Assembly: GCF_004010195.1 (NCBI RefSeq)
Contig: NC_057749.1
Location: 20,149,663 to 20,204,298, forward strand
Direction: 5' to 3'
DNA from: Chiloscyllium plagiosum
Taxonomy: Eukaryota
DNA length: 54,636 bases
Shown here: positions 4,753-35,312 of the stretch, piece after piece
How the letters are laid out: each line of letters starts with the position of its first letter
Numbering within the stretch: the first letter of the stretch is position 1
Position numbers and translations under genes: made by a program
Notes under the pieces: model-generated
The model's database searches: none
Seen by the model: the letters and a program-made list of their open reading frames with translations, nothing else
Told to the model about the DNA's origin: nothing

Positions 4753-4901
4753 CATATTGGCCTGTATTAAACAGAAGAGGATCCTGAAACTGATCTCCGG
4801 GATGCCGTACTTAGTCTTGGTTTCAGCAGCTTTTACATTAAAGTTCAAGCCAGTGCAAGGATTAACATCCTCTGAGGCATCCTGTTTTAGCTGTTATTTT
4901 G
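4753..4901 (+). repeat. Unclassified ~150-bp repeat, copy B
   Basis: Inverted copy of 3758-3908. Confidence 0.85.
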
Positions 4902-5344: not shown

Positions 5345-6247
5345 GATAAAGTATAAGTTCCTTGAAAGTGGAGTCACAGACAGGGTGGTGCAGAAGGCTT
5401 TTGGCATACTTGCCTTGGTTTGTCAGAATGTTGAGCATAACAGTTGGGATGTCATTGTTGCGGCTATACAGGATATTTGTTAGCGTGAAGAGTATGGTGC
5501 TGGAAAAGCACAGCAGGTCAGGCAGCATCCGAGGAGCAGGAGAATGGATGTTTCGGGCATTAGGTGCTCATCAGGGTTTCCTGATGAAGGGCTTATGCTT
5601 GAAACGTCGATTCTCCTGTTCCTTTGATGCTGCCTGACCTGCTGTGCTTTTCTAGCACCACACTCTCGACTCTGATCTCCAGCATCTGCAGTCCTCACTT
5701 TCTCCTAGGATATTGGTTAGGCCACTTTTAGAATATGGTGTACAATTCTGGTCTTCCTTCTATGTGAAGGACGTTGAACCTGAGGGTGCAGAAAACATTT
5801 ACAAGGACGTTGCCAGGTTTGAGCTGGAGGAAGAGTCTGAATAGGCTATGGCTATTTGGAGCGTCAGAGGCTGAGGGGTGACCATGTGGAGAATTATAAA
5901 GTTAAGAGAGGCATGGACAGGGTGAATAGTCAAGATCTTTTCCTAAGGTGGGAGAGTCCACGACTAGAGGGCATAGGTTTGAGGTGAGAGGGGAAAGATT
6001 GAAAAAGGACCTGAGGGGTAACTTTTTCACGCAGAAGGTGGTGTATGTATGGAATGAGCTGCCAGAGGAAGTGGTGGAGATAGGTTCAATTACAGCATTT
6101 TCAAGGTTTCTGGGTGGATGTATAATTAGGAAGGGTTTAGAGGGATATGGGCCGAATGCTGGCAAATTGGTCTAGATCAGTTTAGAATATCAGGTCAGTA
6201 TAGACAAGTTGGGCTAAAGGATTTATTTCTATGCTGTATGACTCTAA
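5345..6247 (+). mobile_element. CR1/HER1 LINE 3' fragment, interrupted by a Penelope-derived palindrome
   Basis: ORF 5948..6175 has TRGHRFEVRG and FFTQKVVYVWNELP. Confidence 0.9.
5484..5706 (+). mobile_element. Fold-back Penelope-derived mini-element (family A) with hammerhead core
   Basis: Inverted arms of about 90 bp plus a 3' tail. 14-bp TSD aggatatt(t/g)gttag at 5470-5483 and 5707-5720. Core CTGATGA-AGGGC-TTAT-GCTT-GAAA-CG-TC at 5581-5608. Confidence 0.85.
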
Positions 6248-6249
6248 AG

Positions 6250-6362
6250 GTCAAAAATTGCACGACATCCTGTTATTGTCCAACAGGTTTATTTGAAAAC
6301 ACCAGCTTTTGGAGTCTTGCTCCTCCTTCAGGTGCTGGAATGCCAGCATCTCCACACCATGG
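6250..6362. mobile_element. Truncated Penelope-derived mini-element (family B)
   Basis: gtccaacaggtttatttg...gcttttggag and tail ccagcatctccacaccat match the 26941 element. Confidence 0.65.
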
Positions 6363-6437
6363 CTACCATTGACTCAAAGTGATTGATGAGCTCAATAATC
6401 ATTGGAAAAATGTGTCACACATCTTTAATGATGTACT

Positions 6438-6830
6438 GCGGTGACTCAGTGAGCAACACGCTCTCCTCCTGAATCAGCAGATTATGGGTTCGAGTCCCAC
6501 TCGGAGGTTGCAGTGCAAATGATTGAGGCTGACACTGTTGGTGCCTTATTAGAGGAAGACTGTTTGAGGTGTCTCCTTTCAGGACCCCATCAAACAGGTC
6601 CCCGACACTCTGTCAGATGGATACAAAATATTTTCAATAATGGATATCAGTTCTCCTGGTTTACTGATTGTGTGTCCCTCAGCCGACATTGTAAAAGAAG
6701 ATTGTCTCGATGTTATTGTCCTGCTGTTACTGGATGTTTTTGTGCCAGTGTTGCAACAATTACTGTACATCATTGATTTAAAGGTGCTTTGTGATGTCTT
6801 AAGGTTGCAAAAGACAGTATGGGATTGGAA
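6438..6830 (+). mobile_element. Deu-domain SINE (SacSINE1-like)
   Basis: tRNA-like head with B box ggttcgagtccc, followed by a Deu-like core. Confidence 0.65.
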
Positions 6831-7102
6831 ACTGCTTCTGTGCAGCAGCCTCTTCACCAGATTGTCTGCCTCCTTTCTTTCCTTGGATGATGCAAGACCG
6901 TACTAAATAGGAACTGAATGACTGCAGGAGAGCGAGAGTTGGAGTAGTGGGGATGGGAGTCTGTAGGTGGGAAGACTTAGGATCTCCCAGGTTTCCAGCA
7001 GCAGTTTATCGGAAAACTCATCTTGCGATTCCAGAGATGCGTGGGGCCAACCAAATCATTGACTCAAGGCAGGACTTCTGGAGTTGAAGTTCTTGAAGCT
7101 TT

Positions 7103-7165
7103 CCACCAGTCTGTTTAAACAACTATTCCCCCCCCCCCACCGTCTGTTTAAACAACTATTCCCCA
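7103..7165. repeat. Short tandem duplication (~33-bp unit) around a poly-C tract
   Basis: gtctgtttaaacaactattcccc occurs twice. Confidence 0.85.
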
Positions 7166-7592
7166 GGGATGGGTGTTAGAAAAGCCAATGTGGATTTTGG
7201 ATTGCTTTAAGGAAGAGATGCTAAATGCAAATTAATTATCCCACAATGACGATGCCCACTTGGATGGTCAATACAGTCTACACTAAATGTGCATCAATAT
7301 CTGAAACATTGTCAGTGATTCAGACCAATAACAAGACGTGTTCTAGCATATCGGCCTTTAAGTTATGTTGGGCAACGTTCAAAGTTGGACTTTCTTTTTG
7401 GGTTGAATGGGACTCAGACAGGCCTGCTGCAGAGCTTCAGAATGGAGAGGGGGAAACTGGATAACATGATGGGAGCTAAAATGCTTAACTTCTATTGTTA
7501 ATGAAGAACATGCCAATAAACAAGTTTCAAGCAAGGTTGGCTTTGTGGAAATAGATATTCTCAGTCAGCCTGTGTAGAAACATTATTATACA

Positions 7593-8240
7593 TGTTATGG
7601 ACCAGGCCAGACCCCCCTCAAAACATTTCAAGAAAGTAGCCCAGACCCTAACTTTGCTCGCTGTTTTAAGCAGGTATAACATGGGTATTCCAGGAGGAAT
7701 GCCTTTGGTCAAACAATGTAGTTTTAAACAAAACAGAATCTATTTAGAAGATTTCCGAATGAAACACAAACAAAAGAGAACAAAATACTGAAAAGCTTAA
7801 CCTATCTGAAAACCCAACAGATTATCCCAACTTAATGTTATTGTTCCAAATACTAGCAACAATTCCCATAAACACCCCTTGACACAAAAGGTAAAATCAA
7901 ACACAGGGTCTTAGAGGAGAAAAATCAGAGAGATATCAGCATGGACCTGCTTCTTTCGGTCCAGCAGCTTTGAAACTGCCTGACTGCTTTCAGTGTACAG
8001 CCAGACTGCCCAAAACCAAACCAAAGGAAAGCTGAGCGGGGAGAACTGGCTACTCCTTTTTCAATGTACATTTTTTTTTAACGTGAAAGCCTTTTGCTTG
8101 AGGCAGTATCTGTTAGCTATGATCAAATTGGCCCTAAAACCCATCCAAGCCCAGACTTTTCGGAACCTGTATTTTTATAACCTCCTGAGGAAAAAAAACC
8201 AAGGATAACATAACCTTGTTAAAGGCACAGCATCATCACG
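7593..8240 (-). mobile_element. Probable solo LTR (~650 bp)
   Basis: Begins TGTTATG and ends CATCAC(G), imperfect inverted TG..CA-type termini; non-coding; no clean TSD. Confidence 0.5.
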
Positions 8241-8312
8241 CACCTCTGCAGCAGGTGGGACTAGTACCTAGCTGAGACCTCCGTTTGCACAATGCTGTGG
8301 GGGCCTTCTGGT

Positions 8313-8418
8313 TCAGAAACAAGGACAGAAATTGCTAGATAAACTCAGCACGTCTGGTAGCTACTGTCCGGATAGAAATCAGAATTAACATTTCGGGTTA
8401 AGTGACTCTTCCTCAGTA
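8313..8418 (-). mobile_element. Penelope pLTR-derived fragment with degraded hammerhead core
   Basis: Minus strand reads CTGAGGA-agagtcacttaaccc-GAAA-tg-tt. Confidence 0.55.
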
Positions 8419-8639
8419 CTACTATGGAGCCTTCTAGTTCGGAGGTAGGGAAACTACCACAATGCCACAACAGCTCCAATCTTGAGGGAGCACCCTACTT
8501 TTCCTGTCCCACCCGCAGCCATGTACACACTTCCTTGTAATTTATTGGCTAGTTCATTGGGTAATTGGTATATGAACAATCAAGAACCCAGTTGGCAAGC
8601 TTCTTTAAGGGGAGAAAATGGAAGAGCGCTGGGTTCTTC

Positions 8640-8960
8640 CTTCACTATTCATCCACAGGATACAGACTTTCCTGGCTAGGCCAGCTCTTACTGCCCTTCC
8701 CTGCTTACCCGTGGGATGATAGTGGTGAGCTGCATTCTTGAACCATGGCAATCCATGTGGTGTGCACTCACGGTACTGTTGTGGGGTGAAGTTCCAGAAT
8801 TTTGGCCCAGTGACAGTGGAAGAGCAGTGATATTATTTCCAAGTCAGGATGGTGAGTGTGGCTAGCGATGTAGGGGGAGCTTGCAGGTGGTGGTTTTCCC
8901 TATTTGTCTGCTTTCCTTGTCCTTGGTGGTAGACGACGCGGTTTAGGAAGTGCTGATGAG
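8640..8960 (-). mobile_element. L2-like LINE 3' end (also at 10775-11055, 13838-14075, 23190-23400 and 51995-52515)
   Basis: Shared gaattccag.attttgacccagtga and tttccaagtcaggatggtg blocks. Confidence 0.6.
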
Positions 8961-9422
8961 GGAGTGTGTAATAGGTTTGAAGGTTGTATGGATGAGCGGA
9001 GATGACTACTTTATAAACTATTGTACTGTGTGACTGTTATGAGCATTGCTGCTGTTTGCATGGGACTCTGGGAATTGTCCTGATTTATTTTTGGAATAAC
9101 ATCACAGGTGTCTCTCCGTTTTCCCATGAAAACTACAACCTTGGAGCATGAGACGTCTACTGTTGATACTGGGGGAGTCATCATCAAGACGTTGAGGAAC
9201 TCAGTTGTGAAGTTAACTGAGCACATTCCCCTGAGGGTGTCCCGAGGTCTCAAATGAGTTAAAACTATTAACTTACTGGCGTTCCATCTGAAGATCTTGA
9301 GTATTGTGCTCAGTTCTGTTCACTAACTTCTTCCCACGTGTCACTGGATTATTCTCTCACTTTAGAGATCTGAGTGAGAGCTGATGTGATGGGTTATACC
9401 AGATTGCAAATACAATAGTAAT

Positions 9423-10108
9423 GTAACTAGGGTGACCAGAATTGCACACACTGTACCAAAAGTGGCCAACCAATATCCTGTACAGCCGCAACATAACCTC
9501 CCGACTCCTATACTTGATGCTCTGACCAATAAAGGAAAGCATATTAAATGCCGCCTTCACCATTCTATCTACCTGTGATTCCACTTTCAAGGAACTGTGA
9601 ACTTGCATTGTGAAACTTGAAAGGGTTCAGAAAAGATTTATAAGGATGTTGCCAGGGTTGGAGGATTTGAGCTATGGGGAGAGGTTGAACAGGCTGGGGC
9701 TGTTTTCCCTGGAGCATCAGAGGCTGAGGGGTGACCTTATAGAGGTTTATAAAATCATGAGGGGCATGGATAGGGTAAATAGACAAAGTCTTTTCCTTGG
9801 GTTGGGGGAGTCCAGAACTAGAGGGCATAGGTTTAGGCTGAGAGGGGAAAGATTTAAAAGGGAGCTAAAGGGCAACTTATTCACGCAAAGTATGATGCAT
9901 ATTTGGAATGAACTGCCAGAGGAAGTGGTGGAGACTGGTAGAATTATAAACCTTTAAAAGGGAACTGGATGGGTATATGAATAGGAAGGGTTTAGAGGGA
10001 TATGGGTCAAGTGCTCGCAAATGAGACTAGATTACGTTGGGATATCTGGTCGATATGGACAAGTTGGACCAAAGGGTCTGTTTCCATACTGTACATCTCC
10101 ATGACACT
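9423..10108 (+). mobile_element. CR1/HER1 with 5' inversion (9423-9608 antisense, 9608-10108 sense)
   Basis: ORF 9357..9608(-) QVHSSLKVESQVDR... and ORF 9610..9957(+) KLERVQKRF... are consecutive ORF2 segments. Confidence 0.88.
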
Positions 10109-10419
10109 AAATGTGAAATGGACATTGCCTGGGGAGCATGGAAGAAAAGGACAATTTAGAACTGATGCCAGATAATTCTGCTGTGCAAAGAAATGGACAA
10201 TGTTTCAAATAGACTGTCTGAACTCAGTGGTGGCAGCAGTTCCTCATGAATGAGAATAATTGTCCAGTTAAGAAACTCCGCGTCATTGCTCACGGGTTCT
10301 GTGAGGCCTTGTGTGGCTGCTGAGCCCAATCCTAGAGCCACAACTCGAACCTCACATTTGGCAGGTGTTTATCTAGGAATTACCCTTGACCTTGAACATT
10401 CCTTTCTCCAGTTTCTTTT

Positions 10420-10545
10420 CTGTGCTTCCTCTTGCTGATGGGAATTCTCAAAGATTTGTATCCCTTCACACAGGAGTGTCCTCCAAGTTGGTGTCTTCTG
10501 AATGAGGGCCTTCCATGTGTTGATATCTGTGTTGCATTGACATTG
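10420..10545 (-). mobile_element. Ancient RTE-clade LINE C-terminal fragment
   Basis: Minus strand translates DINTWKALIQKTPTWRTLLCEGIQIFE, resembling the RTE W..LA.DR..WR motif. Confidence 0.5.
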
Positions 10546-10774
10546 CTGCTGATGGAGTAGCGACGATGCGTACCCAGAATTTTTTTAAAATGTGGTGGCG
10601 AAGGTGCATTTTTTTTTTTGACCCTCCTCATTCGTCGATATCTTGCAGCAGTGAATCAGGCAGAATCCTGGCCGCCTCTGCACCATGCACCCGGTCATAG
10701 CACCTTCCTTTGCAGTGTCAACATCTGCTTACATTTAGAAGTGGCTCTAAGAGGAATAGCATTAGTAATTTTTA

Positions 10775-11055
10775 AAATTCACTCATGGGATGTAGGTGCC
10801 GCTGTCTGATCAGCATTTACTGCCAGTACCTAATTGGTCCTTGAGAAGGTGATGGTGAGCTGCTGTAGTTCACGTGCTGTAGGTGGACTGAGAATGCCCT
10901 GAAGGAGGGAATTCCAGGGTTTTGACCCAGTGATGTGAAGGAATGATATTTCCAAGTCAGGATGGTGAGTAACTTAGAGAGGAACTTGGAGGTTTTGGTA
11001 TTTCCATATATCTGCTGTCCTTATCCTTCCAGATTGAAGTGGTCATGGGTTTGGA
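10775..11055 (-). mobile_element. L2-like LINE 3' end
   Basis: attcactcatgggatgtagg...cttgagaaggtgatggtgagc. Confidence 0.6.
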
Positions 11056-11147
11056 TTCTGTATTCGTGGATTAAGAACTCTTAATCAGATACTTTCACAC
11101 CTAAAGCCATTGCTTTAGTGTTTTAGAAGCATTGATTGCAGGCGCTC

Positions 11148-11356
11148 ACAAGTCTCTGCTATAGCATGTTTAGTTAAGGCGAATTCGCTGTAACACAATT
11201 GATGTATTAGAGACACTATTTCTAAAGCACAAACTTTTAAAAGGTGTGTGGCTGTAAAGTGATTACAACAGATTAAGCGCTATTTCAAAAGCGTGATTTT
11301 TCTAGAACATGGGGTTGCGCAAGAATGCAACCATTGTGTTATAGAAGAACTACATA
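11148..11356. mobile_element. Degraded MITE-like DNA transposon
   Basis: Imperfect terminal inverted repeats tctgctatagc / gttatagaagaac; related end tacaggttgttctg at about 12287. Confidence 0.4.
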
Positions 11357-11461
11357 TACCTGATATTAGCAGATGGACAAATGCCAGTGTGCTTGCAGTT
11401 CATGCTCAGTGTGATAGATTTGTCTGTATTAGCAAAATGATTTCTAATATAAGTATAGAAA

Positions 11462-12285
11462 ATAGAATTTAGAACCTTACAGCACAGGAATAGGCTCTTC
11501 GGCCCACAATGTTGTGTCAAACATGACGCCAAGTGAACCTAATACCCTCTACCTGCCCTTGGTCCATATCCATCCATTTCTTGCTAATTGTGTGTTTATC
11601 TAAAAGTTCTTTAAATGCACTTATCGCTTGTTCCTCCACCATCACCCCTGCATTCCAGACTCCTACCACTCTGTTTAAAAAAACCTGCCCCTCACGTCTG
11701 CTTTGAACATCCCCCCCCCTCACTTTAAATGCATGTCCCTCAGTATTAGACATTTCAACTCTGTCAAAAAGATTCTGACCGTCGAACCTATTTATGCATC
11801 TCATTATTTTACAAACCTCTGTCAAGTCTCCCCTCCGCCTCCACCGCTCGAGAGAAAAGAACCCGAGTTTTTCTAGCCTCTCCTTGTAGCTCACACCCTG
11901 TAATCCAGGCAGCATCCTGGTAAACCTCTTTAGATTTAGATTTAGATTTAGATTACTTACAGTGTGGAAACAGGCCCTTCGGCCCAACAAGTCCACACCG
12001 CCCCGCCGAAGCGCAACCCACCCATACCCCTACATTTACCCCTTACCTAACACTACGGGCAATTTAGCATGGCCAATNNNNNNNNNNNCCCGGGTCTCTG
12101 GCGCTGTGAGGCAGCAGTGCTAACCACTGTGCCACCGTGCCGCCCAGGTCTGCAACCTCTCTGAAACTTCCACATCTTTGCTGTAATGTGGCAACCAGAA
12201 TTGAATGCAATAGTCTAAGTGTGGCCTAACGAAGGCCTTATAAAGCTGCAACATGACATCCTGACTCTTGTCCTCAATTCCCCGT
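11462..12285 (-). mobile_element. CR1 3' fragment interrupted by an HE1 SINE
   Basis: ORF 11517..11996 has KRFTRMLPGL and RRRGDLTEVCKIM. Confidence 0.88.
11931..12146 (-). mobile_element. Young HE1 SINE with (tctaaa)n tail, spanning an assembly gap (N at 12078-12088)
   Basis: Head gggcggcacggtggcacagtggttagcactgctgcc on the minus strand; very similar to 24779-25095. Confidence 0.9.
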
Positions 12286-13184
12286 ATACAGGTTGTTCTG
12301 TTGTAATGTGCATTTTGTCAATGCTGTAACATGATTGATCCCACCTTCACTGTGACAATGCCTTGGGTTCCCTGTGATTTTCACTGTCGATTTTCTTTTT
12401 ATTAAAACAGGCAGTCAAAATGTAACAGGCACTTGTCCTCTGACAGTTTGAGCTGTTGTCACCCCTTCTTTTACCACTAAACATACAAAGGCCAAGGAAA
12501 AGCAGCATGTTAAAAAAAAAAACAATGTTGTGCTAAATTAAAATTGCTTCAGAGGCTGCTGCCTACTTTCATAAATAGAAACTGCTTCCATCAACACTCA
12601 ACTCATCACTGCAGAGATTTCATTCAGTGGAAAGGAATTAAGGAAACAAATGGCATCAGACAAAAATTGCACATTCAGCAGCACCACCTTTTGAGTTTGA
12701 AATCTCATCTTGTACGTAAATCTTTACACTTGGGCTGAAGAATGTGAAAACACAGTTTGCTCAGTGTTAGAATTGAGAGTGGAGGTTATAACTCTGCATG
12801 AGCCACCTCCCCCCACCCCACCGCCACCCCCCAATAAAACACGCACACACTACCTCTGGTCCCAATATCAGGAGTGAGAATTTTTTTCAGGTCTCAATCC
12901 AGCCGCTTACCCTTTGTTGAATGCAGTTGCTAATTTGAATTGGTTTTGCGCCAACACGTGAACCACTGGTAGACTTTCCACCTTTAGTTGTTGCAGAGTT
13001 TCATTTCACTACCCCCTTCTGCCAACTTCAGTTCTCCATTATGTTTGGGTCATCTAAACTTTGGCTGTGCATGTCCAAACTCATAACCAGATTAATCAAG
13101 CTTTTGGTCAACTGTCCTGACAACAACTCACCAAGGCTCCTCTGATAGCACCTGCCAAACCAGTAACCACTAACCTGCAGATGG

Positions 13185-13830
13185 GCAAGGTAAGGAGAAA
13201 TTCATCTGCTCTTCCACAAATGTCATCTACTGTATCTGTTGTACCCAATGTGTTCCCCTCTACGTCGGGGAGGCAGTTTGCCAACTTACATCTGTAGGAC
13301 ACCTGCACCAACCAAACCCACTGCCCAGTGGCTGAACACTTCAACTCCCTCTCTCACTCCACCAAGGACATGCAGGTCCTGGGCCTCCTCCATTGCTGAA
13401 CCCTAACTACTTGACACCTGGAGGAAGAATACCTCACCTTCCACCTTGGGACCCTGCAATTCCAGGGAATTAATGTGGATTTCACCAGTTTCATCATTTC
13501 CCCTCCCCCCACCGTATTCCTAGTCCCAAGCTCCAACTCGGCACCGCTATCTTGACTTATCCATTGTCTTCCTATCTATCCACTCCACCTTCCTCTCTGA
13601 TTTATAACCTTCTCCTCAACCTTTGTCTAACTATTGCATTCTCAGTTACCCCCACCACCACCCCCCTCCCATTTATCCCTCAGCCTCCCGGCCAACAAGC
13701 CTCATTCCTGATGCAGGGCTTATGCTCGAAACGTCGATTCTCCTGCTCCTCGGATGCTACCTGACCTGTTGTGCTTTTTCTAGCACCATACTCTCGCCAC
13801 TGATCTCCAGCATCTGTAGTCCTCACTTTC
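13185..13830 (+). mobile_element. Penelope-like element 3' end: GIY-YIG endonuclease remnant plus pLTR (family A)
   Basis: aatgtcatctactgtatctgttgtacccaatgt...ctctacgtcggggag = NVIYCICCTQC..LYVGE; pLTR has mutated core CTGATGC...GAAACGTC at about 13708-13735. Confidence 0.85.
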
Positions 13831-13837
13831 TAAAAGC

Positions 13838-14075
13838 AGACATTACCATCTGCAAGCTCCCCTCCCAGGCACAGTCCATCCTGACTGAGCACTATGTCAC
13901 TGTTCATTCAGTGTTGCTGGGTCAAAATCCCAGAGCCCTCTTCCTGACCGTACTGTGGGTCTCCCTCCATTCCAAGGATTGTAGCTGGAGAAGACAGCTC
14001 GCCATCAGTTTCTGAATGGCACTTAGACTGGCAAGAAACACTGGCTGAGGCAGCGATGCTCACCTCCCATGAACA
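13838..14075 (+). mobile_element. L2-like LINE 3' end
   Basis: Sense copy of the 8640/10775 family. Confidence 0.6.
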
Positions 14076-14315
14076 AAATTATAAAATTAAGTAGTTCACC
14101 ATTTGGTTTGCAAACCTTTGTATGAAAGGTGGTGTGGCGCCCTGTTAAAGGCGCTATTTAAATGCGCTAGGTGTCCATTTGTGAATAGCACTTCAGAGAA
14201 AACCCTGGTGGGGTTTCACCCACTCGGCTCTGTCATGTGACCTTTTTCTGACTGCCATTTCAGGGCAGGAAAGCACTTTGGTCCAGGCTGGCCTGTACAG
14301 ACCGTATTCAGTTAC

Positions 14316-14722
14316 TTAGACAATAGACAATAGGTGCAGGAGTAGGCCATTCAGCCCTTCGAGCCAGTGCCACCATTCAATATGATCATGGCTGATCATC
14401 CTCAATCAGTATCCTGTTCCTGCCTTATCTCCATAACCCTTGATTCCACTATCTTTGAGAGCTCTATCCAACTCTTTCTTAAATGAATCCAGAGACTGGG
14501 CCTCCACTGCCCTCTGGGGCAGAGCATTCCACACAGCCACCACTCTCTGGGTGAAGAAGTTTCTCCTCATCTCTGTCCTAAATGGTCTACCCGGTATTTT
14601 CAAGCTGTGTCCTCTGGTTCGGCACTCACCCATCAGCGGAAACATGTTTCCTGCTGCCAGAGTGTCCAATCCTTTCATAATCTTATACGTCTCAATCAGA
14701 TCCCCTCTCAGTCTTCTAAACT
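14316..14722 (-). mobile_element. Young CR1 3' fragment
   Basis: ORF 14406..14789 has RRLRGDLIETYKIMKGLD and FFTQRVVAVWNALP with an open frame. Confidence 0.92.
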
Positions 14723-15628: not shown

Positions 15629-16486
15629 CTTACATAAGTACATCAGGGCAATAGAACAGAATGCAGTATATAGTGTTGCAGAGAATGTGCAGCGAAAGAC
15701 CAACTCTGATATAGGAGAGGTTCATTCAAAAATCTGATAACAGCAGGGAAGAAGCTGTTCTTGAATCTGTTGGAATGTGTTTTCAAACTTTGTATCTTCT
15801 GCCTGACCACAGGGAGTACAGCTGGAGTGGGAGGGGGTCTTTGATTGTGTTGGCTGCATTCCTGAGGCAGTGGGAAGTACAGTCGGAGTCGGTGGATTGA
15901 AGGCTGGTTTGCGTGATAGACTGTGCTGTGTAATTTCTTGTGATCTTGAAAAGAGCAGTTGCCACACCAAGCTGTGATACATCCGGATCAGATGCTTTCT
16001 GTGATGCATCTATAAAAATTGGCATGAGAATTTGTCACATGCTAAATTTCCTTAGCCTTCCTTAGCCACTTAGTGTCGATGTGTATGGACCAGAATAGAT
16101 TGTTGGTAATATTTGTTCCGAAGAACTTGAAGCTCTCAACCATCTCAGCACCACTGATACAGATGAGAATACTGTCTATGTGGTTTCCTTCGTTTTACTG
16201 ACATTGAGGGAGAGATTATTGTCTTCACACCATGCTACTGAGCTTTCTATCTCTTTCCTGTACTCTGTCTCATTGTTGTTTAAGATCTGACCCATTACAG
16301 TGGTGTCGTTAGCAGTCTTGTCTGACATAGGCATCTTTGTTATCCAGATGTGTGTGGGGCTAGGGAGATGACATTAGCCATGGATCTGTTGTGATGGTGG
16401 GCTAACCTCTCAAAGCACTTGATAACGATGGCTGTCCAAGCCACTGAGTGGTAGCCATGAAGGCACATTTCCTGATTTTTCTTTGA

Positions 16487-16690
16487 TGTGGAGGTGCCAG
16501 TGTTGGACTGGGGTGAGCAAAGTCAGAAGTCATACGACACCAGATTATAATCCAAAAGGTTTACTTGAAATCAGCAAGCTTTTGGAGTGCTGCTCTTTTG
16601 TCAGGTGAAGGAGCACCGTTTCGAAAGCATGTGATTTCAAATAAACCTGTTGGACGATAACCTGGTGTCCTGTGACTTCTGATTTTTCTT
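16487..16690 (-). mobile_element. Fold-back Penelope-derived mini-element (family B, older)
   Basis: Inverted arms around about 16605; TSD-like ctgatttttcttt(t)ga at 16472-16486 and 16679-16694; degraded core gaaggagcaccgtttcgaaagc. Confidence 0.75.
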
Positions 16691-18389
16691 TTGACACAGG
16701 GCTGCCATTGGCTGCCTTCAAAGAGGTGAGAACCTCACATCTGAGTAAGGAGAAGTTAAAGATGTCTGTGAATACTCCCTCTGGCTGGTCTGTGCAGGAC
16801 CTGAGTGCACGGCCGTAGACTCCATCTGGGCCAGTCGTTTTCCGTGGGTTCACCCTCAAGAAGGCTCATCTGATGCCTGCAGCGGTGACTGTTAGTACAG
16901 GTGCACCCGAAGTCGTCTGGTCACTTGGACATCATTTGACTAACCTTCTGTTCAGAACAAGCGTAGAATGCATTGAGCTCGTTGGGGAGAGATGCATTGT
17001 TGCCAGTGAGTCTACTCGACTTCACTTTGTCGTCCATATTATCGTGTAAACCTTGCCACAATCGACGTGTGTTTGTGTCGTGAGTCAGGGACTCTTGTTT
17101 AGTCTGGTATCGTATCTGTGTACATAATGACTTTGCAAAGGTCATACCTAGATTTCCTGTAAAAGAACAGGGAGCTGGGATGGTGTGCCCTTTGAGGCTA
17201 CTTCTGAACAGTGGAAATTGACTGGTTCTAGAGATTAGTAGCTCATGACGCTCTCTTTTCCCTTTGACAGTTCCACATTAATAACTCTGTTCGTCGTACA
17301 CTTATGGACATTTTGCCAGGAAGACTTTGTGTGTGGAGATTGTTTGCATTGTACCAAGTTGAACAGTGGTACTCTAGCTTTCAGTTTGATTCCTGAACAC
17401 ATGGAAAGGGGAAGTTTTACAGTAAACAGTTTACATTGGAGTATGAAGTTTTGTTTTGCGAAAAGAACTGATGCCTGAAAAGACACAGGGTGTCTTTTCA
17501 TTTTCCCCCACTCTACACAACCACAGAAGCTGACCTTTTTGTATCTCCGTTCCGATTGTTCAAAGTAGCTGTCCGTGAGTGAGATTCATGTGTGTTTAAG
17601 TCAGCAAACAGAAGGAATCCCTTTGATGTGCTCAGTGATTAAGACACTTGCCTGTAAAATGAATACTGTGCTGCTTGCTCGTGTCTTCATCTCAAGGCCG
17701 ATGCAGCAGTCTTTTTTTTTTCACTTGTGGGCAGAGGCACAGATCGAGATTCTTTGACAGTACAATAATAGAAGAGGGATGGCGATCGGTGAGGGAGTAG
17801 CAGGAAGCTTCTCTGACTCATCCTGCACAGAGGAAGAAACAGCCGTATATTGTGGAGAGGGCTTCAGCTGTGCTCTGAAATTCTGAGACCAAGAGGTGCT
17901 TCGCACTCAAAGCTGTTTCACACTGAGCTACTTCAAACAATGGAAATGGGATGTATACCTACGATACTATTGAAGTAAAAAAGACTGCAGGTTGTCTTGC
18001 ATGTTTTTTCAGATCTTTGTAGGGTCCAGGAGATCAAGCAACCTTAATTTTGGTGTCTTGTGAGTTGAACAGGCAGATTGTGCAGCCTAGTGCCTTTATA
18101 CTATTGATGTTTTTTTCTGATGCTCTGGTGAAAACCGTTAATAATATCCTGGTTTTAAAAAAAGATGACATTTTAAGGGAGAAGGACTCCACTTTATCAG
18201 AAGTTAACACCAAATTCGTTTCTCTGCCCCCCCCTTTCCTCCCCCCACACCCTCCTTTCTCTTCCCCCTTTCCTTTTCACATCTCTCTCTCTTTCTGCCT
18301 CTCCATATCTGCTTCACTGATTCGTGATCTGTTCTCTGCTGCTGTAACCAAGCCCTCAGCTTTATAAAGGCAACCACTACAGACGTTTT

Positions 18390-25095: not shown

Positions 25096-26940
25096 AAATG
25101 TTGGATCTGATTTTGTTAGGAGGAAATGTAGGAGGAAAACAAATGGTTTTAATGAGTGAACACAACACTGGCTGGCTGCTGCTTTCAGTGTTTAGTTACA
25201 TAGCCCAGTGAAATGAGAGAATATTTAAACTTTATTGTTGAGAATAACTCCTCCATTACATCACTGAGTCCTGGGCTTGTACAAGAGATTGTGGAAGTGA
25301 CAGTGCAGTTATAACTCCCCAGATGCAGTGATGGACATGAAAATGTTAGACTCATTCAAGAATCGACTTTGGGAGCTGTAAAACCATTCTGTAAGAATGA
25401 GAAGGATAATAGAATGGTCTGCCCAAAGTTGACTTATGAATATCAGTGTTTTTGAAGGATGAGCCACTTGTGCAGAGCTTCCTTTTGTCTGCCAATTGTG
25501 ATGTTCACAATAAACTCTATTAATTTCCTGTAATAGCATTAAATTATGTTAACACCAGGATGCCATCGATGCCTTCCATTGCTCCATTTTAAAACAAAAT
25601 GACAAAAGTTGCAATCAGTTAATATTCTGAGAATTGATCAGTATTGTGTCTAACCTTTAATCCTGGCTGTCAAAACTAGACGTTATGGGCTTCCCCTTTT
25701 AAAAAAAAATGTTGGATGACAATTTTAAATCTTGCTACATGGTGATTTGAGTGTGTGGCTTTTTCTGGATGGAGCCAATGCTGAAATGAAACTAGAGACC
25801 TTTTTTGTTTGTTGGGTCTCTATGATTCTTTCTTCATGCGTTTTTTTCCTTCTTGTCCATTTACCTGTTGATACCAGCGGATAGCTCTGATGTATGCCTT
25901 TCTCCCAAGGTCACAATTCATAATAATTGGCAGGTGGCCTGCAGGATTTCTGCAGTGTTCCTTCTGTCCCCTCTCCAGCTGTGATGTTTGTAAAGCACGC
26001 CAATTTGGAGAAGTGACATAACGACAACAAGCAAGTCTGGGATCTGCATGTTTATCCATCTGTTCCAGGCCGCAGCTCTCTTTTCCTTGAGCAACTGATA
26101 GGCCCTCAAGTTTGTCGCTTGGAAAGGCATGGAGTTTTATTTTGCCATGACTTTGTAATTTATAAATATAATCTAGGAAGCTGTGCCAGAGAGTGGGATT
26201 AAGTCACGTTTCTTTGAACCAGTTTGCAGTGTTCTCTGAGAGAATCCAAGCTTAAATTCCACCCCCCCCCTCCAAAAAAATGCCTAACCCCTGCAGACTG
26301 AGAGGCCACATGGGAGTCCTGAATTAATTGTCAAGTCGCTGGCTGCATTTTGACTTGTGGCCAGGGATGTTACTGATGCTGTCATTCATTCGGGTGCTGT
26401 TAAGGCAGTTGAACAGTAATAGACAACAAATTTGTTGGCTCATGGAAGACCTCCTCCAAAGTGCTAAGCTGGTTGGTGTATCCAATATCTGTTGGATGTA
26501 ACGCTCAGCATGATTCTGGACGTGTGATCAGTTTTCTTGGGTATTTCTTTCTCTCTGTATCTCTCTGCAATTCCTGCCTGAAAGTTAATCTTTTACCTAA
26601 ATATTTGGTTGTCTCTCCTAAATCACCCTCTGGCGCTTGTTTTTCCCAGCACCTCTGAAGAGCCTGAGACATCCTTTGCATGTTTAAAAAACAGACAAGG
26701 ACATGATAGTTGCGGAGGTAGTAATTTGTGTTTCAGACGTTAGGTTTCATGGTCTCACCTGTTGAGCTTGTAGGTTGTGCTTTAAATCCTTGCAAAGACC
26801 TGAGCACATTCTAAGGCTGAGATACTATCTATGACATCACCACAGGAACTGACATTATAAGAGGAAATGACATCACCAACCCAAGGAAACCTAAACACAA
26901 AAATAGAAAGTGGGTCACTAATACCACTGCTTCACCAGAG

Positions 26941-27174
26941 TTAAAAATCTCACAACACCGGGTTATAGTCCAACAGGTTTAATTGGAGGCACACTAGCTT
27001 TCGGAGCGTCGCTCCTTCATCAGGTGATAGTGGCCACTATCACCTGATGAAGGAGCGACGCTCCGAAAGCTAGTGTGCTTCCAATTAAACCTGTTGGACT
27101 ATAACCTGGTGTTGTGTGATTTTTAACTTTGGATACCCCATTCCAACACTGGCATCTCCAAATCATCTCTACTA
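26941..27174 (+). mobile_element. Fold-back Penelope-derived mini-element (family B) with intact hammerhead cores on both strands
   Basis: 188-bp spacerless palindrome 26940-27127 (centre 27033/27034, about 3 mismatches) plus tail; 12-bp TSD gcttcaccagag at 26929-26940 and 27175-27186. Confidence 0.9.
27041..27075 (+). ncRNA. Minimal type-I hammerhead ribozyme motif (mirror copy on the - strand at 26992-27026)
   Basis: CAC-CTGATGA-AGGAGC-GAC-GCTCC-GAAA-GC-TA-GTG: catalytic boxes, 5-bp stem II, palindromic AGCT in place of stem III, CAC/GTG stem I. Confidence 0.75.
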
Positions 27175-27459
27175 GCTTCACCAGAGGCTCACTGATGTTG
27201 TTACCTAGTATAGTGACAAAACATCTGAAAACGAACCTTTCAGCTCAGCGAACAAACTTACATTCAGAACCTCAATCTGAGCTACACAGCTTCTCAAAAC
27301 TTGCTAATGCTGTCTATGGATAAGCATTATCCCTTGCGTGGATGTAGTAAATCCATCAACTATTCGGAGAAGAGCAGGAGAGCTCTTCCTGGTGTCCTGG
27401 CCAAGATCCACCCTTTAACCAATGTCACTGAATGATTTATCTGATTGTTTAGCTGAACA

Positions 27460-28428: not shown

Positions 28429-29808
28429 CATTGCTGCTTGTGAGAGCTGACCAAGTATCTTGAGGCTTCTGAATTTAAGCTAGCAACTGCACTTCAAATG
28501 ATTTTTAGTGGCTGTGAAATGCATTTGGACAGAGGTTGTGAAATTCGCTGTGTGTGTGTGTATCCGGTCTTTGTTCTTTGTCAGTTTGCTAATGCCATCT
28601 GTAAAGCGGCTTCTGCCCTTTGATTCTATTGGACGTGTGAAAGTGTTCACAGTGGAAGACTCCGGCATACCAGAATTTCAGAGTCCGAGTCAGGGGCAGA
28701 AGTGAGTGTAGTGACCATCACGAAGAATAAGGTGCTAAGGAAACTGAACAGTCTGAAAGTGGATAAAGCAAAGGACCAGCATGGAATACACCCCGAAGTT
28801 CTAAAGGAGATTGCAGAGGGATTGGTGATCTTTCAGGAATCACCAGAGTCAGGGAGGGACACAGAGGACTAGAAAATGGCTAATGTAACACTGCTGTTTA
28901 AGGAAGGTGGGACGCAGAAGACCAAACTTGGCTGGTTAGCCTAACCTTGGTGATTGGTAAGGTTTTAAGAGTCCATTATTGAGGAGTACTTGACAGTGCA
29001 TGGTATAATAAGGTGGAGCCAGTACATTTCTGTCAAGGGGGAGGTCAGGCCTAACAAATCTTTTAGAGTTGTTTTGAGGAGATAAAGAGCAGGTCAGACA
29101 GAGGAGAGCCAGTGGACGTGATCGATTTGAATTTCCGAAAGGCCTTTGGCAAGGTGTTGCAGAGGAGGCTGCTTAATAAGATAAGAGCCATGGTGTTAGG
29201 GGCAAGATAACTGGCATGGGCAGAGGACTGGCTGACTGGCGGAAGGCAGAGAAAGGGGGTAAAAGGGTCAGTGATCAGTGGAGTTCCACAGGGAGTCAGT
29301 GTGGGACTGCAACTATTCACGTTATACATTAATGATTTGGATGAAGGAACCGAGGGCAGTGTTGCTATGTTTTCAGATGACACAAAGATAGGTGGAGGGA
29401 TAGATAGCGTTGAGGAAGCAGGGAGGTGGCAGAAGCAGTTGGACATGCAAGGTGAGAGGGCAAATAAGTGTTGGATGGAATAAAATATGGGAAAATGAGG
29501 TTATGCACTTTGGTAGGAAGAACAGAGGCATAGATTATGGGGAAAGACTTCAGAATTTGAAGCACAAAGGATTTGGGAGTCCTACTATGAACTCTTTAAG
29601 GTTAGCTTGCAGGTTCAATTGGTTAGGAAGACTATGCAATGTCAGCATTTATTTCAAGAGGGCTAGAATGCAAGCAAAGAGAAGAGATGTACTGTTGAGG
29701 CTGTATAAGGCTGTGGTCAGTCAGCATTTGAAATATTACGAGTGGTTTTGGGCCCCATATCTCAGGAAAGATGTGCTGGTCTTGAGGGTCCAGAAGAGGT
29801 TTACAAGA

Positions 29809-30073
29809 ATAATTCCTGAAGGGTTTGTCATATGAGAAGCAGTTGAGGACACATTGGGTGGAGATTAGAAGGATGGTTGGGTTGGGTATGGGCTGGAGAG
29901 GGAATATGGCTGAAATGTACAAAATACTAAGAGACCATAATTCCTGAAGGGTTTGTCATATGAGAAGCAGTTGAGGACACTGGGTATGTATTGGGTGGAG
30001 ATTAGAAGGATGGTTGGGTTGGGTATGGGCTGGAGAGGGAATATGGCTGAAATGTACAAAATACTAAGAGACC
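29809..30073 (+). repeat. Tandem duplication (128 bp + 137 bp) within the CR1
   Basis: ataattcctgaagggtttgtc...actaagagacc occurs twice; copies differ by a 9-bp indel. Confidence 0.92.
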
Positions 30074-30304
30074 TGGATAGAAGTGACGTGGAGAAGATGT
30101 TTCGACTAGTAGGACAGATAAGAATCTGAGGGCACAGCCCCAGTGTGAAGGGACATCCTTTAGAGCTGAGATGAATAGGAAGGACTTAACCAGTGGGTGC
30201 TGAATCTGTGGGACTCATTGCCACGAAGGCTGCTAAGGCCAAGTCATTGAGTGTATTTAAGAAAGAGAGAGGCTGTTGATTAGTAAAGGGATCAAGGGTT
30301 ATGG

Positions 30305-30822
30305 TGTTAGGTTCTTTTTCTTGAGATGCTTACACACCTGTTGCAACTGCAATACGCCAACTTCTGTTAACAGCCATAATTTCTGAAGCAAGTACAAGCT
30401 TTGGAGGATCACTTGACACTCTTCGCAATGCTTGCGAACCGTGTCAAGAGATCTCTTGTAACAAAGGGACCAGTTCTTCCTTTATACAAGATTTTACGTC
30501 ACAGTCAGTAATGCCCACAAGACAACCCCCAGTCACTCCCCCATAGTCACATGCCACTCAAAGACACAATGTAGTGATTTGATTATTTCCAGAAGCAATA
30601 TGGTTAGATCATAACTGACTGGCAAGATCTCGTGTAAATCGTTTTTCTCACTGCAGGGTGTGGTTAGGTTCTTAACTGCAATGTTCTTATTGTTTCTGAA
30701 TTGCAGGAGAAGGCTATGTAAATTTTTACATTCTGCCTGCAAGACAGATAAACATATCACCCACCCACCGGACATCCAATTTCTTGCAGGTCAGCAGAAC
30801 AACTTAATCCTTTAACATCTCA
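30305..30822 (-). mobile_element. Solo LTR, copy 2 (518 bp, TG...CA)
   Basis: atgg|TGTTAGG...ACATCTCA|atgg: perfect 4-bp TSD inside the CR1 3' end; TATAAA on the minus strand at about 30481-30486. Confidence 0.85.
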
Positions 30823-32355
30823 ATGGGAAGAAGGCAGGAGAATGGGGTTGAGAAGCACGTCAGCCATGATCGAATCTGCTCTGCGATTTAATGTGCCAAA
30901 TGGTCTAATTCTGCGCTTATATCTTATTTTCTTATGGAAAGTGTTGTTGCAATGTGAGAAATTGCTTGCCTGCTTATGTTGTTTTGTATCTGAGAAACCA
31001 GGTACTGGTTAATTACTGTAGCTCAGAGCCAGAAAAGCTCCTGTTACACTATCCTGTGATGGTGATTAATTCACAGGTACCTCTCTGTGGTTTCCATGTA
31101 ATTTCAAGATTAATTCTGCCTGTTGTAATCTGTTTTATATGTCATTGAGTGTGCTAACTCATCCCGGAATTTCCTACCAAGGAACATTTTTGGTTCATAT
31201 GAATCCTCAAATTGTACATTCTGTTGGCTTATGACACCTTTTGAACTATTTATTAAATTGCAGTTAAGATGCAATCATATGCTTGTTGAACACTGAACTG
31301 GTGTCTGTCTAAAGCTCATTCTCTGATATTCAAAAAGTTTAAAATTTACTGGTTGGATTAACGGGTTTAAATTTCTGGGGACAGCCTCAGGAAACTCATT
31401 ACTCCTAGTCTGTTAATTTAGTGACTTCATTCGGCTGTAAGGTTGTAATATGATCAACTTGAGAACCCATCTGAAAGATGATTTCCACAGTGGAAGTCTT
31501 GCAGCAAGGATAATGCTGGGATGTTATCATTCAATCTGGCAAAGGAGATTTGAATGGAGGTGGGAGAGCACTAATGCATCATGGCCGGAGAGAAAATGTG
31601 GAATGTTTCCTCCAGAGTTTGAATAGTTTTTTGGTGCAATGTTTGAGTTCTCACGCTTAAAATTGCACAGTTGGATCCATTACCTAGCTGTCCTGCTGTT
31701 AGAACCTGTACCTTTGGGTGACAGTGAACATTGGAGGTTAAAGAATACTCTTGAGCTTTGCTATATGCATCTCATTATTGTAAAATATTGCTCTGTGTTT
31801 GGCTGTGGCATCTCCAGCTGTTTTCGGGGAAAGGAAGCCACAGATCTTAATGACGTTTGGCTACATATTGTGTGTGGTTTGGCTTTAATCATTGGAGAGT
31901 ACAATCAACCATTCAGTGAAAGATTGAAGCAGCTAAAGCAAATCTGAGATGACCCAATTTAATTGTTGAAAGTCATATACACACACTGTAACTTTACTGG
32001 GATAAAAACCATGGTGGGTTGCACTTGGTGCACAATCTCAGGGAATGGCAGTTGGAGAGCGGAGTGCAATGTTGCAGAAGAGTAAAATTATGTTGGAGTA
32101 TTTTTATAGACAGTCCACTGATACAGAGTAATTATTATGCTGAGGTTTGGTCGAAATTAATCAGTGATGTTAATGTGAAAGATGGGATTCAGCACAGAAA
32201 TAAATTTGAATCATCAGATAATTTGAAGTGAGAAACTTTGAATTGAGAGCACCTTTTATCTAATCTGGTGCTACTTGGGGTGTTATCTGTATTGAAATAA
32301 GTCTTCATATCCAGATTTAAATTGCTAAACTACAGATCAGCCAGCAATAACTATG

Positions 32356-32544
32356 CTGGAAATGTGTTGCTGGAAAAGCGCAGCAGGTCAGGCAGCATCC
32401 AGGGAACAGGAGAATCGACATTTCGGGCATAAGCCCTTCTTCAGGAATGCCCGAAACGTCGATTCTCCTGTTCCCTGGATGCTGCCTGACCTGCTGCGCA
32501 TTTCCAGCTCTGATCTCCAGCATCTGCAGACCTCACTTTCTCCT
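32356..32544 (+). mobile_element. Fold-back Penelope-derived mini-element (family A)
   Basis: Perfect 14-bp TSD cagcaataactatg at 32342-32355 and 32545-32558; minus-strand core CTGAAGA-AGGGC-TTAT-GCCC-GAAA-TG-TC at 32417-32444. Confidence 0.88.
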
Positions 32545-32584
32545 CAGCAATAACTATGGCCCATGTTGATAAAAGATATTAGCT

Positions 32585-32840
32585 GTGTCTCAGTGCTCTT
32601 GCCTCTTGGTCAGAAAGTTGTGATTTGAAAATGTACTCTAAACCAGCAATTCTGTGACAGTGCTGAGGGAGCTTTACACTTTTAGACATATCGCCTATAT
32701 CCATCCCGTCAGATGGATGCCAAGATTCGCCAGCACTAGTTTGAAGAGCAAGGGAATTTTCACTTGCCGGTCCAATATATATCACTTAACCTTGCCCAAA
32801 AGAATCTATCTACTCTTCAAAGCTGTTGCGTTTTGTGGGA
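32585..32840 (+). mobile_element. Deu-domain SINE, degraded
   Basis: cagtgctgagggag...cagatggatg...tttgaagagcaaggga. Confidence 0.5.
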
Positions 32841-34449
32841 ATAAGGACTTGAAGATCGCTGCCTGAAGACAAGCTCTCAGTGATTGTCCACTGAACTCTG
32901 GCAAAGTGCCATGTTACTCTGCTCTAGTTAGGGTGATGGGGTAGGTCCCAAGTGGAATAAGAATCAAATCCTGTGTGATTGCTGTTATTTGATCCACGTG
33001 CTAGCTGTCTGGCCAGCTGAGCTAATCCATCCCGCTCCCCTGTGGGAATTTAGAGTGCAGATTGGTTGCCACGTCTCCTGCCTTAAGACAGTGATTTCAT
33101 TTCAAAAGTACTTCATTGACTGTGAAGTGTAATGGGGCTGTCAAAGGTTCTATATAAATGCATGTGTTCTGTCATAAACCCAGTGGGGATATCTAAGGGA
33201 GGCTGCCTGCTTTATTGCTCAAAGATGAGGCATCTGAGTCCTCTCTCCTTTTATAATTAAATGCTACAGATGTGGAGCATGCTACTGTTTAAGTTAACTC
33301 GGGTTGTTTTCTGAAGCTTCTGTTTCCACTACCGAGGAACTTGCAGCGCAGCCGTATACATTAACTGGCAGCTTTCTGCCTTTCCAAGGCAGACCACCCG
33401 AGGTGAGACATGATTTCACAGTTACAGTATCAGCCTCTGTTTTACTGATAGGATTGGCAGAATGCAGTCAGTGTCATTACACATTACTTTGGGGGGAGGC
33501 TTCTCTCCAGATGGGTTGGGGCCGTCACTGCCTGGTTTGTGGCAGCATTTGACCTTTCTGTCGTGAAGAATGGCCCATTATTTTTGATGGCAATTAGTTG
33601 GCTGCGGTTCATCCTGATTTATATGGAGAGCATTGAGAATGCAGCCATTATGTCAGTAATTGCAACGTTGTGGATACTGTGCTTGTACTGAGTACATTAT
33701 CTTGGGAATAGAATTTCCCTTTACTGGGTTCATTTATAATCTTAACTTTCATTGTGTTCAGTAACTGACTCTCTCTTGTTACTGCAAATGGCTACCGGAG
33801 TCTTGGGATATGTGACTGATCCACACTCATGATAGCTAAAACTCATTTGAATTGGACCAGATTTGAGTTGTGTGAAATAACACTCAGGCGCACAGAAATA
33901 TTGAAATGACGCAGAGAACATACTGAGAATCTGAGGAAAAATTCACAGAATTTGAACAGTCAAATCAACTATTGACGTGAGACCATAACTGTTGCTTTTT
34001 AAAAAATTCTTCATACCCTAACCTTGAAGAATAATGTGGAAGGGTTTGAAAAATGTTTATAGTGGCTCATAAGGTGGTTAACATTTATAGGGAGCTCGTT
34101 TTGTGCACACATGCAGCCCATATGGTGGGATGGTTACCGCTACCCATCAGACATTAGGATTCTGTTGAATGTCTGTTCCGAATTTGGATCTAGAACTCTG
34201 GTCTCTGGTTCTGGGACAATCAGAAGCAGAGATTGAGCACTGCATTCGTAAAGTGGAGGTGATGAGTGGTGAGGTAATGCACTCGCTAAGTCAAGGGCTC
34301 GCTTTATTAGTATTACAGGGGACCCGGCCTTGTGGCTTGGAAGCTGTTTTGTGGCTCTTTAGCACCTTCTTTGAGCTCCTAACCTTTTCTAGTTGGATTG
34401 CTTTATGCAAAAGGTCCTAAAACAAAAGCCACGGAAAGAAAGAACCATG

Positions 34450-34636
34450 GATGTAGGTTTGCTCTCTGAGCTGCAAGAGTTATTTCCAGATGTTTCGTCA
34501 CCCTACTAGGTAACATCTTCAATGAGCCTCAGGCGAAGGGTGACGAAACGTCTGGAAATGAACCTTCAACCTCAGCGAGCAAACCTACATCTAAAACTTC
34601 AACCTGAGCTACAAATCTTCTCAAAAATCACTAAGT
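34450..34636 (+). mobile_element. Fold-back Penelope-derived mini-element (family C)
   Basis: 10-bp TSD aagaaccatg at 34440-34449 and 34637-34646; inverted arms; minus-strand core (T)TGAAGA-TGTTACC-TAGTA-GGGTGAC-GAAA-CA-TC. Confidence 0.85.
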
Positions 34637-35312
34637 AAGAACCATGCTTTAGTTGTAGTCATCTAAAAAAGTTTGCACTTTATCTCCAAATGATTATTTA
34701 AATGATTTGTAGCCATTATTTGTTGATGTTATGAAAAGAAAAATTCAAGTGAGCTAAAAATTGCATAGAAGTCTTCAGGGATGCGCCGAAAACCTTTTTC
34801 TTTGGCTTCCAGGGAACTCTAGTTGAAACTCTGGATTATTTGAATAAAAACACTAAATAAATCTGTTTGTTTGATGTAACTGCAATCTGGTCATAGATAT
34901 ATACCTTCTATTTGAAAACAAGATTTTATGGTTGCACCTTATTATTTCCAAAAAATGCTGAGAGATATCCATGTATGTGTATGTGTGATGTGCTGTTAGA
35001 ATCTATTTTTACAATGAGCAAATCGTATAGCAAATTATCTAACTCTCCGTATCTTAAGTGACTTTCAAAGATGACTTTGCTGACAAATTTATGACTTAAA
35101 GTCCATTTGCAGTTGTCTTGTTATATACAAATTTTCTTAACCCCACAAAAATGTATTGTGCACCTTTTCCCTTGCTACTGAGAGTCTGATCTTCACTTAT
35201 TTGAAGGTATTAAAACAAAATTGAAGGAAATTACTTGTGGAGGAGATGATACACACTGCAGTCTATGTTTGTGAATACTACTATTTACGAAGTTTTCAAG
35301 AACATAACCCCG

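Follow-up and report, generated by a model that had tools for sequence, protein, structure and literature searches.

Miniature fold-back insertions in a window of the Chiloscyllium plagiosum genome are very probably 5'-truncated Penelope-like elements with copy-specific joins

Penelope-like elements (PLEs) typically have an inverted 5'-truncated copy adjoining their 5' end and a tail of 30-40 bp at one end (Craig et al., 2021, PMC8557442). Arkhipova et al. (2013, PMC3846280) described their terminal repeats (pLTRs) in inverted orientation, together with tails, target site duplications (TSDs) of 8-10 bp, and palindromes where inverted copies adjoin. The length of the inverted repeats differs among copies (Schostak et al., 2008, PMC2377424), and inverted pLTRs and 3' extensions are treated as peculiarities of individual copies in a curation guide (PMC8969392). 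The origin of the tandem and inverted structures has been called undefined (PMC8557442). The DNA analyzed here is a stretch of 54,636 nt from Chiloscyllium plagiosum (NC_057749.1, assembly GCF_004010195.1, positions 20,149,663-20,204,298 of the forward strand), herein referred to as the window. It looks like a repeat-rich, shark-type intron region and contains five miniature fold-backs (minis): A1 and A2 of family A, B1 and B2 of family B, and C1 of family C. These minis are very probably heavily 5'-truncated insertions of endonuclease-bearing PLEs, dead on arrival and assembled anew at each landing.

Two further bodies of work are relevant for the comparison. Dual minimal hammerhead ribozymes (min-HHRs), located 100-700 bp apart and on opposite strands, were reported by Cervera and De la Pena (2014, PMC4209133) for metazoan PLEs, as were numerous solitary motifs derived from truncated copies. 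For PAc, the Poseidon element of Anolis, the protein was found in vitro to cut and extend both target strands; reverse transcription has two start sites, the interval between which corresponds to the tail, and the hammerhead at the start of the open reading frame (ORF) is dispensable for insertion (Frangieh et al., 2024, PMC11167929).

The five minis had been proposed by an earlier sequence-only reading, and an inverted-repeat search recovered the arms at 5/5 loci. Each mini consists of two copies of the element 3' end placed head to head, of which one extends to the end of the tail and the other stops 35-48 nt earlier; the inverted arms are 77-94 nt long. A1 (5470-5720, plus strand) is composed of a TSD at 5470-5483, the inverted arm at 5484-5575, 2 extra nt, the direct arm at 5578-5671, the tail at 5672-5706, and the second TSD at 5707-5720. 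Stem II of its inverted arm (5556-5568) differs from the direct arm at 7/13 positions, the rest being ~88% alike, which could reflect either local decay or a second template RNA. A2 (32342-32558, plus strand) has TSDs at 32342-32355 and 32545-32558, an inverted arm with the full hammerhead core at 32356-32449, a direct arm at 32447-32507 that begins within stem II and has a ~15-nt deletion near its end, and a tail at 32508-32544. A full core in the inverted arm (34450-34538) and a direct arm beginning within stem II (34537-34591) were also found in C1 (34436-34646, plus strand), with the tail at 34592-34632 and TSDs at 34436-34449 and 34633-34646. B1 (26929-27186, plus strand) is bounded by TSDs at 26929-26940 and 27175-27186 and has a blunt join between the inverted arm (26941-27033) and the direct arm (27034-27126), followed by the tail at 27127-27174; its arms are 97% identical and both hammerhead cores are intact. 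B2 (16470-16691) is likewise a real mini but lies on the minus strand, opposite to the orientation first assigned to it, with the tail on the left: TSD at 16472-16484, tail at 16485-16522, direct arm at 16523-16608, inverted arm starting within the core at 16606-16682, and the right TSD at 16679-16691, which overlaps the arm end by 4 nt.

The TSDs, identified by a scored search for flanking direct repeats, are 12-15 bp in the minis and vary in length. They match at 13/14 positions in A1, 14/14 in A2, and 12/12 in B1, whereas in B2 either 13 bp match exactly or 15 bp match with one mismatch. For C1, the 10 bp recognized previously are the exact core of a 14-bp duplication matching at 13/14 positions. 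Scores of at least 10 were obtained for 2 of 1000 random position pairs; the five minis and the long fold-back A37, described below, scored 11-14. B1 is inserted in a direct-only family C copy (26859-27307, plus strand), 6-17 nt upstream of the hammerhead core of that copy. In the family C copy at 52590-53030, a homologue that has no insertion and provides the empty site, the 12-mer duplicated around B1 occurs a single time, so the B1 TSD is a true duplication. As a single case, the location of B1 inside a family C terminal repeat is in line with cutting of pLTR sequence by a PLE endonuclease; PAc, for comparison, can insert into its own pLTR (PMC11167929).

As the earlier reading had noted, the tail is found on one side only. 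Its length is 35 nt in A1, ~37 nt in A2, 48 nt in B1, 38 nt in B2, 41 nt in C1, and 42 nt in A37. A minimal-hammerhead descriptor gave six matches in the window, all of them in family A, B, or C element ends, compared with a mean of 0.25 and a maximum of 2 in 100 shuffles of the window. This descriptor was passed by 5/10 mini arms, none of them in B2. A search against Rfam gave no hammerhead family at E<=1, and sub-threshold miRNA matches were found on 4/5 minis. By their sequence, the cores appear to follow the scheme of PLE minimal hammerheads, namely CUGANGA, an extra nucleotide, stem II, GAAA, and a palindromic tetramer (PMC4209133). Unlike the dual min-HHRs of that study, the cores in a symmetrical mini are ~6-20 nt apart and back to back.

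The arm sequences differ among families A, B, and C, as had been claimed, and no cross-family pair reached a score of 30. It is misleading, however, to say that these families converge on one architecture: families of differing DNA sequence that have the same integration machinery leave the same footprint. Thus, the common layout is attributed to a shared integration mechanism rather than to convergence.

To describe the joins, arm 5' ends were numbered from the C (C3) of the CUGANGA hammerhead core. The 5' ends of the inverted and direct arms, respectively, are at -1 and -3 in A1 (with the 2 extra nt between them), -5 and +14 in A2 (3-nt microhomology), -10 and -10 in B1, +4 and -4 in B2 (3-nt microhomology), and -17 and +18 in C1 (2-nt microhomology). 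All of the minis therefore fold at or near the hammerhead, within -17 to +18 of the core, as proposed, but not at one fixed place. None of the five folds at the ribozyme cleavage site, predicted at +27/+28 in family A; this site is contained in all arms except the tail-only ones, and folding there was rejected. Joins unique to each locus had been named as evidence against a self-propagating family, and within the window such joins were found: they differ in 2/2 within-family pairs (A1 vs. A2 and B1 vs. B2), and no join is shared among the six fold-backs (five minis and A37). The outer ends are fixed in each family, one arm reaching the tail end and the other the tail start, whereas the inner ends vary. 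The arms are 83-89% identical between A1 and A2 and 74-84% identical between B1 and B2. In A2, B1, and A37, identity is higher between the two arms of the element (97, 97, and 85%) than between these arms and those of other copies (83-89, 74-84, and 74-82%, respectively).

Window-wide profile searches built on the arm alignments gave a census of 13 family A, B, and C insertions: five minis, one long fold-back, three with only an inverted arm and a tail or remnant, three direct-only, and one cut by the window end. An inverted arm with its join inside the window is present in 9/13 insertions, and such stubs are the commonest form. The long fold-back, A37 (37329-38819, plus strand, 1.47 kb), has a TSD of 12 exact bp (16/18 when extended), an inverted arm of ~1.1 kb, a direct arm of ~290 nt starting near -200, and the 42-nt tail; decayed coding remains of the thumb of reverse transcriptase (RT), the linker, and the endonuclease were found in its inverted arm. 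At the other extreme, the older family A stub A51 (51122-51275, plus strand, TSD 13/15) has its inverted arm (51137-51227) joined directly to the tail. B6 (6239-6379, plus strand) has an inverted arm at 6250-6334 that ends at -3, followed by a tail-like stretch, and an imperfect TSD of 10-11 bp with one indel. The decayed family A-like A8 (8303-8442, plus strand, TSD 12/14) retains an inverted arm at 8317-8419 plus ~10 nt. A54 (54453-54636, minus strand), of another family A subfamily, is a tail-less inverted arm with an intact hammerhead core that continues past -93 and is cut by the window end. Two direct-only copies are 5'-truncated. The family A copy at 13185-13831 (plus strand) comprises endonuclease remains, the hammerhead region (core C3 at 13708), and the tail (13800-13831), and neither an inverted arm nor a clear TSD was found for it; the family C copy at 52590-53030 (minus strand) comprises a C-terminal endonuclease-like piece, the hammerhead region, and the tail. 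The third direct-only copy is the one interrupted by B1. The minis thus belong to a continuum of size and form rather than to a unit-length family, and they look like the shortest version of a known PLE footprint.

This layout is already known for PLEs, and the notion of a new class of element does not hold. As in published complex PLE insertions (PMC3846280, PMC8557442, PMC2377424), there is an inverted copy placed head to head, a one-sided tail, a TSD, repeats of variable size, and palindromes at junctions. The differences are that the direct copy here is ~125 nt long or reduced to the tail alone, that TSDs are 12-15 bp, and that tails reach 48 nt; in addition, the layout was described in these sources mainly around full ORFs, whereas stubs are found here. 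Of the two origins considered in the sequence-only reading, a stereotyped abortive product of Penelope integration is the one favored by the copy-specific joins, the series of sizes and forms, and the published PLE layout. No published description of miniature shark PLE palindromes or of PLE twin priming was found in a search that left most subscription papers outside, and curated Repbase or Dfam entries of this layout may exist.

As a tentative proposal, the stubs may record PLE integration itself, with two-ended priming at a 12-15 bp staggered cut and with run-off cDNA at the RNA 5' end as the common short product. The two-ended priming is the probable part of this: both 3' ends of the cut would prime cDNA synthesis, one at the tail-end site and the other at the tail-start site, with either a single RNA (twin priming) or two RNAs (dual priming) as template. 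The two cDNA ends would then be joined bluntly or via 2-3 nt of microhomology. A first cDNA stopping at the second priming site would produce an inverted arm plus tail; running on, or the use of a second RNA, would produce a palindrome. Less firmly, many cDNAs may end where hammerhead helix I begins, ~90 nt from the tail start; this boundary, perhaps the transcript's 5' end, would explain the stereotyped arm length of ~90 nt and why all families fold at the hammerhead. Arm ends in the range of -5 to -3 occur in A1, A2, B2, and B6, and an initiator-like motif is located just before helix I in family A. The helix I boundary could be a transcript start, a splice site, or an RT stop; an intron of D. 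virilis ends at helix I (PMC4209133). Target and element overlap at the outer end of the inverted arm by 2, 1, 0, 2, 4, and 0 nt in six elements (9 nt in total, counted by script with the direct arm of the respective element as reference; P 0.004-0.016, geometric null). Target microhomology at this end is a prediction of twin priming (Meyer et al., 2010, PMC2837659) and thus supports two-ended priming.

Ends of family A were additionally analyzed in public sequencing runs. Three DNA contig sets, two sharing an organism code and the third under a different code, and one poly(A) single-cell RNA run were mapped on the linear family A copy (13150-13880) at 80% likeness; the RNA run cannot separate element transcripts from intronic read-through, nor show circles. 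Between 55,000 and 63,000 contigs per DNA run matched this copy, and therefore family A is very abundant. Among the best 24 of 2,208 rows of loose ends (the six best supported per run), ends lacking any consensus flank piled up before 13704 in 388, 318, and 412 contigs of the three DNA runs, before 13705 in 278 and 334 contigs of two runs, and behind the tail end at 13831 in 449, 278, and 430 contigs of the three DNA runs. Position 13704 corresponds to -4, the start of helix I. The letter before it is a consensus G in 3/3 DNA runs, the reference copy having C, and the G is not seen in the RNA run. A copied cap would give such a non-reference G, which would point to run-off at the RNA 5' end; the G could equally be a subfamily variant or a remnant of a fold-back join. 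A pile at 13703 with a C-rich consensus probably reflects other subfamilies, and a pile at 13715 was discounted as clipping at a private substitution (13714) of the reference copy. Among 15 joints shown of 229, four connect opposite strands; in three of these four, the tail start at 13800/13801 is linked directly to an inverted piece whose end is at 13342, 13705, or 13706, with 1-2 contigs per run. No RNA run was listed as containing the unique stretch searched. A metagenome scan with a family A motif gave 48 loci, none aligned beyond ~35 nt, and all of them were taken as chance matches.

Several observations weigh against assembly anew at each landing and against the proposed mechanism. Only two within-family pairs are available. 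Their members differ by 11-26% and represent distinct subfamilies or ages; differing joins would therefore also be obtained from two independent master hairpins. Kinship of arms within an element is not seen in A1, the arms of which are 84% identical to each other but as much as 91% identical to other copies, or in B2, where the values are 81% between the arms and 84% to B1; in C1 it is marginal (85% within vs. 81-85%). B1 (-10), C1 (-17), A54, and A37 extend past the helix I boundary. There is no target microhomology in 2/6 elements, and its extent changes with the choice of TSD boundary. Part of the 5' pile-up in the public runs may be an alignment effect, with other subfamilies diverging upstream of 13703. 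No symmetric fold-back joint is present among the 15 of 229 joints; this table is silent on recurrence and under-detects hairpins, because six fold-backs exist in 55 kb of the window and none is shown, probably through collapse of inverted arms in contigs. Finally, family B has neither protein evidence nor a coding relative in the window.

The inversion could instead arise by self-priming at each insertion, with a single cDNA folding back at a short palindrome or microhomology and copying itself. This is rather unlikely, though here too the minis would be PLE stubs that are dead on arrival, and the only disagreement concerns how the inversion is made. Self-priming is favored for palindromes at inverted junctions by the authors of PMC3846280, and it suits the blunt perfect palindrome of B1 with its nearly identical arms and the join microhomologies of A2, B2, and C1. 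However, it predicts arms that cover the same stretch, whereas A51, B6, and the joints to 13800/13801 consist of an arm plus tail without overlap. In A2, C1, and A37, it is the arm without the tail that extends further in the 5' direction; in B2, it is the arm with the tail. Self-priming also gives no account of the exact stop at the tail start in each family or of the target microhomology there.

It is very unlikely that symmetrical stubs were formed after insertion, by loss of the middle from long inverted-repeat PLE insertions such as A37. Long fold-backs do exist (A37, perhaps A54), and microhomology at 3/5 joins suits deletion repair, but B1, young by its arm identity, is already minimal, and the arm-plus-tail class is left unaccounted for. 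Moreover, deletion does not predict that the 5' ends of single arms accumulate between -5 and -3, as they do in the public contigs.

Self-propagating palindromic retroelements, the other option of the sequence-only reading, are highly improbable. A few master hairpins would be transcribed and re-inserted whole by PLE proteins in trans, which fits the narrow size range and the fold points near the hammerhead in five elements; PLE ends can mobilize unrelated sequence in trans, and nonautonomous PLEs exist (PMC3846280, PMC8557442). The lack of any shared join, the size series with the same layout both at 1.47 kb with coding remains and without a duplicated arm, and its earlier publication for PLEs all argue against this option. 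A unit transcript would form one long hairpin pairing the core with its complement (minimum free energy of -175.7 kcal/mol for B1), and in A2 and C1 the tail-bearing arm is without the CUGANGA core, leaving no fixed relation between ribozyme and tail. A rarer self-amplifying subset, with a minority of young hairpins as masters, is improbable to a similar degree. Palindromes are a known long-read artefact, but an origin of the minis as fold-back chimeras of assembly or library is extremely improbable given arms that differ by 3-19% with independent substitutions, a TSD on each element, the empty-site homologue of B1, and inverted-arm/tail joints in independent public runs.

Insertion as heavily truncated PLEs can also be compared with three other systems. 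Like products of L1 twin or dual priming (PMC2837659), the minis have inverted and non-inverted pieces bounded by a TSD, with target microhomology; L1 also has variants with a very short non-inverted piece and a two-RNA variant. In L1, the second primer acts at variable internal sites and the pieces are without overlap, whereas here the site is fixed and the pieces usually overlap to form a palindrome. By analogy, the minis would work like L1 twin priming without being members of it. Metazoan non-LTR (long terminal repeat) retrozymes are similarly small, non-coding, provided with a type I hammerhead, and probably PLE-dependent (Cervera and De la Pena, 2020, PMC7229834), but they are head-to-tail tandem repeats of 170-400 nt with circular RNA, whereas the minis are single insertions homologous to PLE 3' ends. 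Head-to-tail monomers were not seen in the window, where all two-arm elements are head to head. Miniature inverted-repeat transposable elements (MITEs; PMC8969392) are also small and non-coding with inverted repeats. Inverted repeats at both termini and a fixed short TSD were not found here: one repeat of the minis is non-terminal owing to the one-sided tail, TSDs vary within 12-15 bp, joins vary, and the relatives carry coding remains of RT and endonuclease rather than of a DDE transposase. Repeat annotation will mistake such stubs for MITEs, short interspersed elements (SINEs), or pre-miRNAs. Their main value is as fossil clues to PLE integration: a dense series in several families, which runs from arm plus tail to long fold-back and combines fixed outer ends with variable joins, offers a direct genome-wide test between two-ended priming and self-priming. 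If the tentative proposal is true, a single model would account for the size of the stubs as well as for tail, inverted pLTR, and TSD in different PLE clades, and PLE integration would have a very large natural read-out in shark-type genomes.

The assignment to PLEs relies on both coding relatives and insertion features. The coding remains of A37 align with a 359-aa RT/endonuclease-type protein, P0001 (45% identity, 220 aligned positions, E 1e-46), and the family A copy at 13185 aligns with the same protein (E 2e-21). P0001 bears PF26215 and the motifs YIDD and LYIGET, which we take to be RT-like and GIY-YIG-like, respectively. The sole protein relative found is assigned by its source to Chiloscyllium punctatum (48% identity). 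In Atlas, the A37 piece groups with PF26215 proteins (0.97); for the family C piece, PF01541 occurs on 17% of members (score 0.87), which serves as a lead only. A Pfam scan of six decayed fragments gave 0 matches. Longer GIY-YIG relatives had been reported for both families: the motif is visible in the family A copy at 13185, but all that remains in the family C copy at 52605 is an endonuclease-like piece from the C-terminus, itself a lead. From these motifs, longer family A copies may have combined an RT with a C-terminal GIY-YIG endonuclease, as would be expected of endonuclease-positive PLEs; a full-length master with the partial tandem pLTR-ORF-pLTR was not found in the window. By its motifs, family A looks Neptune-like and family C Poseidon-like; family B is filed as a PLE by layout alone. 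The features of PLE insertions found here are a hammerhead in the terminal repeat, a one-sided tail, an inverted 5'-truncated copy of variable size, and a TSD.

Several other features were noticed in the window. A decayed hammerhead-like motif at 40790-40860 (minus strand), unrelated to families A-C, is possibly a stub of a fourth PLE family. A hairpin at 53606-53686 has 36-nt arms (35/36 complementary) and a 9-nt loop; neither a TSD nor similarity to families A-C was found for it, and Rfam gave only sub-threshold miRNA matches. The ~1.1 kb element at 3761-4897, with terminal inverted repeats of ~145 nt, is probably an old non-autonomous DNA transposon. An 11-N run (assembly gap) is located at 12078-12088. 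The coding exon at 40390-40620 reads, we presume, like the N-terminus of casein kinase 1 gamma, and the downstream insertions are probably in its introns. Many truncated fragments that we take to be CR1-like long interspersed elements and SINEs were found in both orientations (e.g., 35347-36914 and 47636-48215), and they account for the longest inverted-repeat pairs of the window.

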